The translations under genes were made by a program, and so were the position numbers. Of a DNA stretch of 33,668 nt, positions 3,104 to 8,033 are shown in pieces. The notes beneath the pieces were generated by a model. That model was not told where the DNA came from and ran no database searches. It saw nothing but the letters and a program-made list of their open reading frames with translations. Each line of letters opens with the position of its first letter. The stretch's first letter is position 1. Origin of the DNA: a virus. Its lineage: Duplodnaviria; Caudoviricetes. The stretch covers positions 1 through 33,668 of IMG/VR virus record IMGVR_UViG_3300012352_000260. One strand, 5' to 3'.

Positions 3104-3205
3104 AGTCAGGTGGCGGAATAGGGGGATCATTCCTCGCGGCAGACGCAGCGCAATTAGGTTCGAATCCTAATAATTGGTGCAGGTTCGAATCCTGTCCTGA
3201 CTACA
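3104..3205 (+). tRNA. Atypical tRNA-like element (nominal anticodon CGA/Ser; possibly not used in translation)
   Basis: Acceptor stem AGTCAGG 3104-3110 / CCTGACT 3196-3202; D-arm TGGCGGAAT...GGCAGACGC; T-arm GCAGG-TTCGAAT-CCTGT 3179-3195; D-loop insertion; anticodon arm resembles a second T-arm. Confidence 0.6.
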
Positions 3206-3260: not shown

Positions 3261-3833
3261 ATGATAGAACACGTAAACATTAAATTGGTTATTCCTCATC
3301 CAAATAACCCTAGATTGATCAAGGATGACAAATTTAAAAGACTTGTTAAGTCGATCAAAGACTTTCCTGAGATGCTTGAATTGCGTCCTATTATCGTGGA
3401 CGAATTTATGATTGTCTTGGGCGGTAATATGCGCCTGAGAGCGTGTCAAGAGGCCGGCCTGAAAAAAGTGCCGATCATCAAAGCGTCTAATTTGACGCCT
3501 GAGCAGCAGAAAGAATTTATCATCAAGGACAACGTAGGGTTTGGAGAATGGGATTGGGATGCTTTGGCAAATGAATGGGATGCAGAATTATTAGCAGATT
3601 GGGGGCTTGACGTATGGCAAAACAACGATGAGCCTGATTATTCAATTCTTGATTCTGAGGATCTAACAGATCAGCTAGGCGATATGGCCGGCGGCGTACG
3701 CAAGGCGATCCAAATTGAATTTGAGCCTGAGCATTATGAGGAGGCGCAAGAATTGGTTAAATTTTGGAGAGGCCGCGAATTATACATTGGTGGATTCTTA
3801 ATGGAGAAATTGAAAGAAGAGAAATTGAAATAA
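3261..3833 (+). CDS. ParB/Srx-like N-terminal domain protein heading the DNA-modification operon
   Basis: PHPNNPR...LVKSIKDF...RPIIVDE..IVLGGNMRLRA...IIKDN..GEWD motif series. Confidence 0.9.
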   Translation: MIEHVNIKLVIPHPNNPRLIKDDKFKRLVKSIKDFPEMLELRPIIVDEFMIVLGGNMRLRACQEAGLKKVPIIKASNLTPEQQKEFIIKDNVGFGEWDWDALANEWDAELLADWGLDVWQNNDEPDYSILDSEDLTDQLGDMAGGVRKAIQIEFEPEHYEEAQELVKFWRGRELYIGGFLMEKLKEEKLK

Positions 3834-4426
3834 TGTGTTCAATCATTGGTTTTTCGGGTGTTTACAATCGCGATCTATTGACGAAAGTCTTTGAGAACAG
3901 CAAAATTAGGGGGATCCATAGCTTTGGATTCTCCTATTATGACGCAGGAAAACTATTGACTAACAAATTTCTTGATTATGATCAGTTCGTTTCAGCATTA
4001 CACCAAAAAGCGCCTAACAAATTTATTGCCCATTTTAGGTACAGTACCTCAGGCGATTATAAGGAAATTGACAACAATCAACCGTTATCAGACGGCAAAA
4101 CATCGATTGCTTTCAACGGCGTTATATCGCAGAAAACAAAGGCCGAAATGGAACAGGAATACAATATGTCGCTTCAAGGAGATAATGACGGCTATTTATT
4201 GCTACACAAAATGGACGATCCTGCGTTTTTATCTAGCAAATCAATCACGTTTGCAATGGTTGGTTTATCAGGCGGTAAATTGGTAGCAATGAAAAACTCA
4301 AAGAGGCCATTGTATATTGCTGATAAGGACGGAACGCAATTAATAGCAAGCACGAATGATATTATGAAGCGCTCAGGGATTGATTTTGCGGTTGAATTGT
4401 CAAATCTTAAAAAGATAGCATTTTAA
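3833..4426 (+). CDS. Class II (Ntn-hydrolase) glutamine amidotransferase-like protein; true start 3833 (MCSIIG)
   Basis: TAATG coupling gives a Met-Cys N-terminal nucleophile; RGIHSFG, AHFRYST, NNQP, FNGVI and GDNDG motifs. Confidence 0.85.
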   Translation: MCSIIGFSGVYNRDLLTKVFENSKIRGIHSFGFSYYDAGKLLTNKFLDYDQFVSALHQKAPNKFIAHFRYSTSGDYKEIDNNQPLSDGKTSIAFNGVISQKTKAEMEQEYNMSLQGDNDGYLLLHKMDDPAFLSSKSITFAMVGLSGGKLVAMKNSKRPLYIADKDGTQLIASTNDIMKRSGIDFAVELSNLKKIAF

Positions 4427-5256
4427 TGTCACACATCGATTATGCTACATATCACCGGATGAGCCTTGAAGCAAAAGATATTGATCCGTCAATAACTTGT
4501 TTAAAATACCTTTCGGACAGGTTTGAACTCAATATTGAGCAACGGTATTGGATCGCGTTTTTGTACGGAACTTGCTATTGCGCGCCAACAGTGTTTTACA
4601 TCTACAACGAATTTCCGGATTTTGAATGCGTTGACGTGAATAGGCTTACTAATTGGTGGAATGCTAAAAAGGATAATTGTATTTTTCAAACCGATCGCCA
4701 AAGGATCAAATCTAACAATCAATTTGTTGATTGCTTCAAGTCTTATAAGGCGCTTGTCAAGAATAGTCAGCAAAACTATTTTCGCTCAAAGAATTGGCAG
4801 GAAATGTACAAGAAAATGGAGGCTATCAAGTATTTCGGTAGATTCAGTCTATTTAACTACCTTGACGTGTTAAATAACATTACAGACATTAATCATAAGC
4901 CAACCTACCTGAATATGCTTGAAGCGGAATCTTGCCGGAACGGGTTGGCATACGCCATTGATCGAATCGATCTAGTGGACAAGAAAATTACAAAGAATGA
5001 CGCCATTTTGTTACACAATTCATTTATTGATTTTTTACGGAAATATGACGGCAACGTATTTCAGATTGAAACTACACTTTGTGCTTATAAAAAATATCGC
5101 AGAGGCAGCCGGTATGTTGGATACTACATTGACAGGATGTACGGCGAAATTAAGAAAATGGAAGCGGCAGTAACAAACGGCGTTTATTGGAACGTTTTGT
5201 GGCAATTCCGTGAAGAAACTTTTGAAAGGAAATATCTGTATGAGTGTAAAAAATAA
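4426..5256 (+). CDS. Amino acid:DNA transferase family (aGPT-Pplase2/ADDT-like) DNA hypermodification enzyme
   Basis: DIDP..., RYWIAFLYG..Y, FGRFSLFNYLD, SCRNGL and IETTLCAYKK...RYVGYYIDR match my recollection of this family; TAATG coupling. Confidence 0.8.
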   Translation: MSHIDYATYHRMSLEAKDIDPSITCLKYLSDRFELNIEQRYWIAFLYGTCYCAPTVFYIYNEFPDFECVDVNRLTNWWNAKKDNCIFQTDRQRIKSNNQFVDCFKSYKALVKNSQQNYFRSKNWQEMYKKMEAIKYFGRFSLFNYLDVLNNITDINHKPTYLNMLEAESCRNGLAYAIDRIDLVDKKITKNDAILLHNSFIDFLRKYDGNVFQIETTLCAYKKYRRGSRYVGYYIDRMYGEIKKMEAAVTNGVYWNVLWQFREETFERKYLYECKK

Positions 5257-5746
5257 GGCGTTTTTTCTTGTAGGTAATTACGGATGCGGCAAATCGTCTA
5301 TAATTAAAGAAACCGTAACGCGGCAAGAAAGTATATTTTTGGAAATTAGGCCGAACGTTTGGGTTGTAGGCACGCAAATCAATGGCGCTGACAGTCTATC
5401 TCAATTCGCAAAAGAAAACGTCCTAAAAACAATAATTGAGAACAAGGACAAAAATGTTATCATTGCCGGGAACTACTATTGCCAAATCAAGGATATTGAA
5501 ATTTTAAATAAGCATTTCAGTGTTGTTTTGGTGTATTTAAAAACAACGTTCGAAAATAACGCAAAACGCATCGCTGAGCGCGGTAAACTGATAAACGTGG
5601 ACACGTTCAATAATAAATTGAAAAACCACATTTCAATGATAAGTAAAACAAACGGGTTGCGTAAATTGTACATAATTGATAATAATCAGCCTTTAAAGCA
5701 AACTAAACACGAATTTTTTAACATAATAGAAAATGAGATCAATTGA
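5240..5746 (+). CDS. P-loop nucleotide/DNA kinase associated with base modification; start re-assigned to 5240
   Basis: Walker A GNYGCGKS after a hydrophobic strand, G-x-D-x-L-S motif and lid R-x-x-x-R-G. Confidence 0.75.
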   Translation: MSVKNKAFFLVGNYGCGKSSIIKETVTRQESIFLEIRPNVWVVGTQINGADSLSQFAKENVLKTIIENKDKNVIIAGNYYCQIKDIEILNKHFSVVLVYLKTTFENNAKRIAERGKLINVDTFNNKLKNHISMISKTNGLRKLYIIDNNQPLKQTKHEFFNIIENEIN

Positions 5747-6512
5747 ATTAGTTAAAATAGAGCATAATGTTAAAATTGGCGATGTTTGCGGCGATATTGA
5801 GCCAAATATCACTGAGGACACAATTTTTTTGGTAAACGGGGAGCCTATTGGGTTCTACATCAAAAACATTGCAGATTATTCTGAGAGAGCCGCGCAATTA
5901 GTCGCGATCGCAAACACGGAATTTAGAAGCAAGAATGTACCCAAAAGTACAATGAACAGAACAAGCGGAGAACAAGGCAATACGGCAAGGGTTCAGCAAT
6001 TTAGCACAATCCTTGGTAGCGTTCCACCTAGACCACATATGAAGCGCCCATACCCGTCTATTTCATCGGTTCATCAGGTAAAAACAGCAAATACATTTAT
6101 CAAGGCAATGCTTATGCTTTGTAACGAAAGTGAGCAGATCATTAAAAAAATAGCGCCGAACATTTATGAAAAGCAGTTGGATATAATTAGCACAAACGTT
6201 GATAAAAAATGGCGATTTGGTAATTTATTCACGTCATCAATTTCAAATTACAATATCTCAGCCCCGTTCCACCGGGATGCAGGAAATTTTGAGGGATGTG
6301 TAAATGTTATCATTGCAAAAAAAGAAAACGCAAGCGGAGGCAATACAACCGTGCCTGACTACGGCGCAACGATGGATTCTTGCGACAATTCAATGTTGGT
6401 TTATCCTGCTTGGAGAAATGTGCACGGAGTTACGCCAATTATTCCGAAATTTGATGGCGGATACAGAAACAGTCTTGTGTTTTATCCGTTGAAAGCATTT
6501 AAAGGACTATAA
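5733..6512 (+). CDS. TET/JBP-family 2-oxoglutarate/Fe(II) dioxygenase
   Basis: FTSSISNYNISAPFHRDAGN (HxD), distal HGVT His and RNSLVFY 2OG-binding Arg. Confidence 0.85.
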   Translation: MRSIELVKIEHNVKIGDVCGDIEPNITEDTIFLVNGEPIGFYIKNIADYSERAAQLVAIANTEFRSKNVPKSTMNRTSGEQGNTARVQQFSTILGSVPPRPHMKRPYPSISSVHQVKTANTFIKAMLMLCNESEQIIKKIAPNIYEKQLDIISTNVDKKWRFGNLFTSSISNYNISAPFHRDAGNFEGCVNVIIAKKENASGGNTTVPDYGATMDSCDNSMLVYPAWRNVHGVTPIIPKFDGGYRNSLVFYPLKAFKGL

Positions 6513-6513
6513 T

Positions 6514-6879
6514 ATGGCAACCATAGCGCGCGTGACTAAAATGAACAAAAAGAAGATGCTTGAAGCATTGGAAAAATCGTTGGGGATCGTAACGACAGCC
6601 GCAAAGGCCGCCGGGATCGATCGCACAGTTCATTACGATTGGTTGCGCAATGATCCTGAGTACAAGACGGCCGTTGAATCATTATCAGATATGACGCTTG
6701 ACTTTGCTGAATCTCAATTACACAAGCAGATAAAGGAGGGAAATACAACAGCAACAATTTTCTATTTAAAGACCAAAGGCAAAAAACGCGGATACGTTGA
6801 GCGCACAGAGGTTGTACACGAAACCGGCATTGAATCTGCCATAATAGAATGGACACCGGCAACAATCGAAAACGAATAG
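6514..6879 (+). CDS. Terminase small subunit
   Basis: HTH (LGIVTTAAKAAGIDRTVHYDW) plus ATIFYLKTKGKKRGY; lies directly before TerL. Confidence 0.85.
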   Translation: MATIARVTKMNKKKMLEALEKSLGIVTTAAKAAGIDRTVHYDWLRNDPEYKTAVESLSDMTLDFAESQLHKQIKEGNTTATIFYLKTKGKKRGYVERTEVVHETGIESAIIEWTPATIENE

Positions 6880-8033
6880 GGCAGCAATGCAACGTTCAAT
6901 TTTTTCAGACGCTAAACAGCAACAAACGTATTAAGGTTCATCAGGGCGGTACACGTTCGGGGAAAACTTATGCGCTTTGTCAATACCTGATTTACAAATT
7001 AACGTCATCAAAAAAGCCGCTTGTTATTTCGATCGTCCGGAAAACATTGCCGGCCTTGAAAGGATCCGTACAACGCGATTTTCTTGAAATCCTAGACAAT
7101 TTAGGGATCCTGTTTATAGGGCAGCATAACAAATCAGAAAACACGTACACGTTCGGCAATCACGTTGTTGAATTTCTTTCAGTCGATGAGCCTCAGAAAA
7201 TTAGAGGCCGGAAACGAAATATATGCTACTGTAATGAGGTAAACGAACTTGATTATGAAGATTTCAGGCAATTATTAATGCGTACAACGGATGAGATGAT
7301 TTGCGATTTTAATCCGTCTGATCCTGTCCATTGGATCTACGATGACGTGATCACGCGTGACGATTGTGACAGTTGGATCTCAACCTACAAAGACAATAAA
7401 TTTTTACCTGCGGAGTTGGTAAACGAAATTGAGCGATTGCGTGAAAAAGATCCGGACTATTGGCGCGTGTACGGCGAGGGAAAACGTGCGGTGTTTAGTG
7501 ACAGGCAGATATTCCCTAATTGGAAATTTATTCCAAAGGCGGAATTTCCTGAATTTGATGACGTATTTTACGGCCTTGACTTTGGATTTAGTCACGATCC
7601 TACGGCGATCGTTCAGTTGGCAAAGGTTGGCGATAAATTGTTCATTCACGAAATTCTGTACAAGAAAGGAATGACAAACCGTGATATTGCAGACTTTTTG
7701 AAAGAAAAGAAAATAAATGAGCATATTATTTATTGCGAATCAGCTGAGCCAAAATCGATTGAGGAGTTGAGACAGATGGATATATTGGCAATTCCTGCGA
7801 TCAAAGGAGAGGGATCAATCAAGGCCGGAATCAGTTTGCTAAAAGAACACGAAGTGATTTGTTCAGCCGAATCGTCAAATTTGTTCAGCGAATTTCAGTT
7901 TTATTTTTGGGAGCAATTAAAGGACGGCACGATTGTAAACAAGCCGATCGACAAGCACAACCACCTTATGGATGCTATCCGGTACGGTGTTTATACCAAA
8001 TACAAAAATCGATCTGATTTTTTTGTAGTTTAA
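6849..8033 (+). CDS. Terminase large subunit (PBSX/SPP1-like)
   Basis: QGGTRSGKT Walker A, CYCNEVNE Walker B, DFNP, GLDFGFSHDP and NHLMDAIRY. Confidence 0.95.
   Translation: MDTGNNRKRIGQQCNVQFFQTLNSNKRIKVHQGGTRSGKTYALCQYLIYKLTSSKKPLVISIVRKTLPALKGSVQRDFLEILDNLGILFIGQHNKSENTYTFGNHVVEFLSVDEPQKIRGRKRNICYCNEVNELDYEDFRQLLMRTTDEMICDFNPSDPVHWIYDDVITRDDCDSWISTYKDNKFLPAELVNEIERLREKDPDYWRVYGEGKRAVFSDRQIFPNWKFIPKAEFPEFDDVFYGLDFGFSHDPTAIVQLAKVGDKLFIHEILYKKGMTNRDIADFLKEKKINEHIIYCESAEPKSIEELRQMDILAIPAIKGEGSIKAGISLLKEHEVICSAESSNLFSEFQFYFWEQLKDGTIVNKPIDKHNHLMDAIRYGVYTKYKNRSDFFVV

Follow-up and report, generated by a model that had tools for sequence, protein, structure and literature searches.

What does a class II glutamine amidotransferase (GATase) contribute when its gene directly precedes that of an amino acid:DNA transferase (AADT) in a viral genome? 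The question is raised by a DNA of 33,668 bases (here called the window), which is a whole virus record with a completeness estimate of 100%. Pfam scans of the window identify HK97-like head genes as well as tail genes. Five coupled genes lie ahead of the terminase genes, and the GATase gene comes second among them:

3261..3833, + strand: ParB-like protein (Pfam ParB_N, E = 3e-7), predicted activator of the thymine dioxygenase
3833..4426, + strand: class II (Ntn) GATase domain (GATase_6, E = 2.4e-6, above the family cut-off), predicted ammonia donor
4426..5256, + strand: AADT (ADDT / aGPT-Pplase2 family; PF18724, E = 2.1e-18), predicted ammonia acceptor
5240..5746, + strand: P-loop kinase (Walker A motif in the sequence), predicted 5-hmU DNA kinase
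5733..6512, + strand: TET/JBP Fe(II)/2-oxoglutarate dioxygenase (Tet_JBP, E = 1.1e-11), predicted to convert T to 5-hmU in DNA
6514..8033, + strand: terminase small and large subunits (PHROGs, Pfam), context outside the pathway

A GATase gene within a thymine modification cluster

The junctions on both sides of the GATase gene read TAATG. Specifically, the ParB stop codon TAA (3831-3833) overlaps the GATase ATG at 3833, and the GATase stop codon TAA (4424-4426) overlaps the AADT ATG at 4426, which upholds a preliminary description of this DNA in which the GATase and transferase genes were said to be coupled. The ParB, kinase and TET/JBP genes were absent from that description, and clusters that hold them have already been published. 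The kinase reading frame begins with an ATG at 5240, which the ORF finder extends to a GTG at 5210. Its Pfam AAA/dNK matches are weak, and homologs in related loci match Ploopntkinase3 at up to E = 7.7e-17. The TET/JBP protein keeps H180-x-D182, H231 and R245.

Pfam searches of the 49 ORFs in the window identified no PLP, radical-SAM, flavin, GNAT, amidoligase, thymidylate-synthase or C5-methyltransferase gene. Furthermore, six-frame searches of the whole record, in which positive controls matched, returned no GNAT and no FAD enzyme resembling gp47 of phage PaMx11. Two other features of the window deserve mention. The TET/JBP family to which the product of 5733-6512 belongs is labelled 'queuine tRNA-ribosyltransferase' in PHROG 6059 and in several GenBank records, which looks like a misannotation. 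Upstream of the ParB gene, positions 3118-3202 form a short GC-richer stretch that carries two GGTTCGAATCC copies and is tRNA T-loop-like.

According to O'Toole et al. (2026, PNAS; PMC13229309), GATases, P-loop kinases and AADTs consistently accompany the thymine dioxygenases that depend on ParB, and the Dataset row 'GATase' of that paper places a GATase near phage thymine dioxygenases in about 10-11.5% of contigs. From the clusters of these enzymes (5mYOX clade C1), TET and ParB alone were tested there, and the sections of the paper considered here give neither a GATase function nor a final base. Lee et al. (2021, PMC8989533) name amidoligase and glutaminotransferase genes among those whose role had yet to be established. 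In the literature covered, whose scope excludes Iyer et al. 2013 (NAR 41:7635) and bioRxiv supplements, we found no paper that assigns a function to the GATase. The gene set is already published (Lee 2021; O'Toole 2026) and, relative to those sources as far as they were covered, a role for the GATase in glutamine-dependent base amination is a new proposal.

The gene encodes an intact class II amidotransferase domain

The GATase product has 197 aa and begins with Met-Cys. The preliminary description had taken the TAATG at 3833 as the true start, such that a Cys nucleophile is exposed, and homologs bear this out. A search returned 176 matches among 250 candidates, and among the 120 listed homologs from which residues were counted, 116 begin with Met-Cys and 119 have Cys in the column of the nucleophile (C2). 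A longer TTG start at 3764 proposed by the ORF finder was rejected because it lies inside ParB and because of the prevalence of the Met-Cys start. Eight other positions (R26, H67, R69, Y70, T72, N95, G96 and D119) are each identical in all 120 listed homologs. Cys and Q-loop counts from related loci, which had been picked by sequence patterns, do not enter into this evidence.

An AF2 model of the domain (pLDDT 96.4) superimposes on PurF with a Z score of 20.3 (rmsd 3.1, 194 residues aligned), on the GlmS glutaminase domain with a Z score of 19.5 and on EgtC with a Z score of 18.6 (rmsd 2.8). These scores for a predicted structure differ by less than 2 and do not separate PurF/GlmS from EgtC by fold. 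The sequence match is nearer to PurF (E = 1.1e-7) than to EgtC (E = 0.013), and the Q-loop (H-x-R-aromatic-x-T) aligns with the HVRY-x-T-A-G loop of PurF. The aromatic residue of this loop is Y70, which we take to be positionally equivalent to Trp74 of GlmS. In GlmS, the Q-loop aromatic forms an ammonia channel, as described in the part of PMC7948480 considered here.

Orthology to each of the three reference enzymes was rejected. For PurF, the score reaches 31.5 bits where the purF cut-off demands 350, and the window protein has only 197 aa and no synthase domain; for GlmS, both the score and the missing domain speak against it. For EgtC, the TIGR03442 score is 14.8 bits against a cut-off of 218.65, which argues against membership in that family and not against EgtC-like action. 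Judged from sequence and from the model, the product of 3833-4426 is an intact class II glutamine amidotransferase domain, whose activity is predicted. No match to it was found among 50,697 phage records, and hence no cultured carrier was found. In addition, the stretches fetched from the cultured TET-linked phages MED4-184, Acadian, Prince and Tonitrus contain no annotated GATase.

GATase and AADT form a conserved pair

The second claim of the preliminary description, that the GATase is a stand-alone domain, holds for the window, where the gene has no attached synthase domain, and fails for some relatives. Nine longer homologs, found among 8,000 scored candidates, consist of a GATase followed by an AADT domain (PF18724); one of these is incomplete, and in two the N-terminus is missing from the gene call. 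The existence of such natural fusions led us to reject the notion that this GATase always stands alone. Seven fused GATase-AADT ORFs are present in the related loci described below.

In loci seeded with the GATase (the best 80 of 157 related viral stretches), an AADT comes after the GATase in 78, and the remaining two stop at the GATase gene. Loci seeded with the AADT (the best 80 of 211) share some contigs with that set, and all 57 that were newly fetched carry the GATase. Across all 305 loci collected in this study, 299, together with the window, hold a full AADT, and these sequences form 122 AADT clusters at 80% identity. With the window set aside, 75 clusters contain the GATase; it precedes the AADT in 69 of them, is fused to it in 6 and lies downstream in none, whereas the positions of kinase, TET and ParB vary. 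ParB is present in 56 and the kinase in 73 of the 76 GATase clusters.

Eight of the 76 adjoin a thymidylate-synthase-family gene instead of TET. Some of these hold fusions, and most also carry a 5-hmdU kinase helical domain. Persistence of the GATase-AADT link in this setting suggests that the pair does not depend on the way in which 5-hmU arises. Comparative evidence, read from sequence, thus makes the AADT the well-supported partner of the GATase, which is the partnership that the preliminary description had supposed.

Several related loci show further arrangements. One protein (P0130, 859 aa) is an AADT-kinase-unknown-ParB fusion whose AADT is of the GATase-linked type. GNAT is fused in frame to AADT at L007:2069-3097, which keeps only the N-terminal part of the GNAT, and at L195:3474-5057. 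A gene for a TET-associated glycosyltransferase (TAGT) resides inside GATase-AADT clusters at L155:4864-5640, L202 and L217:3831-4610, and in these genomes sugar and amine routes may share 5-hmU. A weakly GIY-YIG-like gene of 420-490 aa is located between GNAT and AADT in L157, L171 and L180-L189 (about 4550-6010).

The GATase and an FAD enzyme are mutually exclusive

A route to a modified aminomethyl base is known from Pseudomonas phage PaMx11, in which 5-AcNmdU genes encode the gp49 kinase, the gp46 glycine:DNA transferase, the gp47 FAD enzyme and the gp48 acetyltransferase (PMC8989533, PMC11472151). Glycine transfer is followed by FAD-dependent cleavage to 5-NmdU and then by acetylation; gp47 is a known maker of 5-aminomethyl-dU and gp48 is a proven 5-NmdU acetyltransferase (PMC8989533). 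Control loci with PaMx11-related AADTs (the best 80 of 234, with W/K as part of the seed pattern) have the same ParB-TET-AADT-kinase frame with a gp47-like FAD enzyme and never a GATase.

The 122 AADT clusters divide into 76 with the GATase only, 39 with the FAD enzyme only, 7 with neither and none with both. At 95% identity, the corresponding numbers are 121, 52, 12 and 0. Whole-record checks with controls agree, in that four complete FAD-type genomes have no GATase and four GATase-type records have no FAD enzyme. Because GATase versus FAD enzyme is one contrast between two AADT clades that were seeded separately, the 76/39/0 split does not represent 115 independent events.

GNATs occur in 38 of the 76 GATase clusters and in 9 of the 39 FAD clusters, and amidoligases in 13 and 4, respectively. 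A GNAT tree needs four changes of label (GATase or FAD), two of which are forced by strong branches. Labels on the amidoligase tree are not clustered, as 154 of 500 shuffles give a value as low. The best match of PaMx11 gp48 in the set adjoins a GATase-AADT fusion (L149; 35.5% identity, E = 3e-24), compared with 27.3% for the best GNAT from an FAD locus. These sequence comparisons find their simplest reading in a GATase and AADT that together yield the same product as AADT and the FAD enzyme.

The natural fusions, fixed gene order, FAD-enzyme exclusion and common GNAT and amidoligase add-ons therefore support both the partnership and a product whose aminomethyl amine is free. The latter, already suggested in the preliminary description, is well supported by comparative genomics, with the qualification that GNATs and amidoligases require only some amine and not specifically 5-aminomethyl. 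Moreover, the residue after the catalytic Cys in FAD-type viral clusters is Asp, not Lys, in 38 of 39, such that the donor and product of these enzymes are themselves predictions.

Other observations concern these add-ons and the FAD-type loci. A large sister family with the order ParB-TET-AADT-FAD enzyme-kinase is found in L225-L305 (for example, L248, L276 and L305), and its sequences suggest that its donor may not be glycine. A pair of genes encoding Amidoligase_2 and a low-molecular-weight phosphatase-like protein appears in both cluster types (L041:2212-3482; L237, L274, L302 and L305) and may acylate the aminomethyl base. A second GNAT-like family of about 210 aa (L120:4742-5377 and relatives) sits where other loci have the 134-aa GNAT, which suggests repeated recruitment. 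In the cultured Rhodococcus phage Tonitrus, a Rossmann-type gene (gp8; L088:3761-4642) accompanies ParB-TET-AADT-kinase. Iterative search alone placed Tonitrus gp8 in the FAD group, and pairwise BLAST of gp8 and gp2 against PaMx11 gp47 and gp48 gave no significant match. Tonitrus is a possible culturable test of an FAD-type cluster.

The AADT keeps its catalytic residues and lacks the glycine pocket

The window AADT retains D20, Y51, D90, E215, T216 and C219, whose counterparts in PaMx11 gp46 are D24, Y51, E92, E243, T244 and C247. The catalytic D, E and C are present in all 76 GATase clusters, and the T is present in 71 and replaced by S in 5. Pocket residues of the family are described in PMC11472151 and PMC13458397, and according to the latter a few of them set the choice of donor, with many donors unknown. 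The glycine pocket W146/K150/K248/Y257/D262 reads F140/N144/A220/R229/Y234 in the window, where the last two were placed by counting from the Cys. With F140, N144 and A220 in place of W146, K150 and K248, the enzyme lacks the carboxylate-binding lysines of glycine enzymes. Indeed, the GATase-type pocket (Ala/Ser, Lys, Arg, Tyr) differs from both the glycine and the diamine pockets of PMC13458397, as far as these are covered here. K223 and R229 are invariant in GATase-type AADTs and, judging by sequence, could bind either DNA phosphate or a carboxylate on a bulkier donor.

The serine enzyme gp247 of phage ViI also lacks W146/K150, and therefore this loss excludes the known glycine pocket without being diagnostic for ammonia. 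In an AADT tree (a quick search with SH-aLRT only, in which long branches are flagged), one FAD clade is set against a clade that holds the GATase type together with ViI, Cr30 and Prince. The records of ViI, Prince and Cr30 have no match to the window GATase family in a search whose positive control worked, which indicates that this AADT clade also works without the GATase. When the AADT sequence was compared with those of solved structures, only chance matches emerged.

Certain loci (L270, L271, L275, L277, L284, L290 and phage Prince L085) have TET-AADT-kinase with no GATase, FAD enzyme or GNAT nearby, and have Gly, Ala or Thr after the catalytic Cys. Clusters of this kind, with neither GATase nor FAD enzyme, probably use other donors.

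A proposed route to 5-aminomethyl-dU

We consider it probable, on the evidence of the sequences, that the GATase supplies glutamine-derived ammonia to the AADT and that the outcome is 5-aminomethyl-dU in phage DNA. In the first step, a ParB-activated TET/JBP enzyme would oxidise T to 5-hmU, as shown for other members of the class; this base would be made by TET on finished DNA, after replication. The kinase would then phosphorylate 5-hmU, as shown for relatives. Next, Cys219 of the AADT would add to C6 and the phosphate would leave to form an exocyclic methylene, a step for which the residues are conserved here. This chemistry is supported for M6 gp51 by trapping and mutants, and the AADT mechanism described in PMC8989533 involves a Cys adduct and an exocyclic methylene open to added nucleophiles. 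In the fourth and new step, the GATase Cys, exposed after Met removal, would hydrolyse Gln, and the NH3 released would attack the methylene.

By a narrower margin, we favour a more specific form of this model, in which GATase and AADT would constitute a two-subunit, sometimes fused, glutamine-dependent amidotransferase that acts on a dsDNA base and replaces the glycine-plus-flavin route, with unacetylated, positively charged 5-aminomethyl-uracil as the final base. Because this phage has no GNAT, the free amine would be its end product, whereas relatives would acetylate or acylate the amine. The purpose of the modified base is likely to be protection from host nucleases.

Alternative roles for the GATase

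The foremost alternative, which we regard as unlikely though still worth weighing, is EgtC-like trimming, wherein the AADT attaches a γ-glutamyl compound and the GATase removes glutamate on the DNA to leave a free amine. The compound could be glutamine, joined through its amide nitrogen, or a γ-Glu-thiol (glutathione or γ-Glu-Cys), joined through sulfur, and the products would be an aminomethyl or an S-linked cysteinyl residue available to GNATs or amidoligases. In class II enzymes, residues such as R69/T72/D119 would bind every γ-glutamyl group whose α-amino acid end is free, and the conservation of these three residues, the close fold match to EgtC and the possible carboxylate binding by K223 and R229 all suit this scheme. 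The GATase-AADT fusions and the common add-ons fit it equally well. However, an Nα-linked Gln/Glu adduct is held by a C-N amine bond, which Ntn hydrolases are unable to cleave, and so trimming works only with a γ-glutamyl amide linkage. Such a linkage through glutamine would depend on an amide nitrogen, which is a poor nucleophile, and the GATase would have to bind DNA and reach the base. The closer sequence match to PurF and the PurF-like Tyr of the Q-loop, kept in 120 of 120 listed homologs, also argue against trimming. The thiol variant gains from the finding that AADTs accept thiols in vitro, where a β-mercaptoethanol adduct is formed (PMC8989533). Of the two mechanisms in the preliminary description, ammonia supply is thus favoured by the sequence evidence, and trimming is feasible only in its γ-glutamyl amide form.

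It is improbable that the GATase serves another step, either by giving ammonia to the amidoligase or in the amidation of 5-formyl- or 5-carboxy-U, while the AADT uses a host amine or amino acid. The amidoligase gene, where present in GATase clusters (13 of 76), often directly follows the GATase; an unrelated GATase-amidoligase pair exists in phage Laroye with no AADT nearby; and these dioxygenases oxidise iteratively in vitro (PMC13229309). Nevertheless, the window and 63 of the 76 GATase clusters show no amidoligase, which led us to reject it as an obligate partner. Amidoligases also reside in FAD-type clusters (4 of 39) that have no GATase, their tree labels are not clustered, and the fusions join the GATase to the AADT, including in loci without TET.

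In the least probable reading, the GATase prepares a small donor for the AADT (for example, glutamate made from glutamine, or an amine released from a γ-glutamyl-amine) and the base is not 5-NmdU. This reading accords with the control of donor choice by few pocket residues and with a pocket unlike those described, but glutamate is already abundant in cells, an Nα-glutamyl base would offer no primary amine to the GNATs of 38 of 76 clusters, and a labile intermediate, ammonia for instance, fits the strict coupling and the fusions.

If the favoured reading of ammonia supply to the AADT is correct, a function and a product would be assigned to a widespread cluster that is left unexplained in the parts of PMC13229309 and PMC8989533 considered here. 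It would extend class II amidotransferase chemistry to an acceptor within the DNA polymer, and would provide both a short enzymatic way to place a primary amine handle on DNA and a shorter route to a base for which other phages start from glycine. The five-gene form in the window is the simplest version to reconstitute, and the natural fusions offer a single-chain test object.

Comparison with known systems

Like the published ParB-dependent T-dioxygenase clusters, the window has ParB, TET/JBP, GATase, kinase and AADT, and no C5-methyltransferase. EgtC, which performs γ-glutamyl trimming in ergothioneine synthesis, is likewise a stand-alone class II domain of the same fold, but the window protein scores below the TIGR03442 cut-off and has another gene context. 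In the AADT tree, the serine:DNA transferase gp247 of ViI groups with the GATase-linked enzymes, whereas ViI uses serine and a PLP decarboxylase (PMC8989533) and its record has no match to the window GATase family.

With PurF and GlmS, the window GATase shares its fold, N-terminal Cys, Q-loop, Asn-Gly oxyanion motif and Asp. It differs in having no PRTase or isomerase domain, and the acceptor predicted for it is an intermediate attached to DNA, in an AADT that is either a separate protein or fused to the GATase. PaMx11 resembles the system described here in its predicted 5-NmdU intermediate, in the homologous catalytic residues of its AADT and in GNATs that are homologous to those of related loci. 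In contrast to PaMx11, the window has no glycine pocket, gp47-like enzyme or GNAT; its 5-hmU is predicted to arise after replication through the action of TET, and its nitrogen is predicted to come from glutamine.
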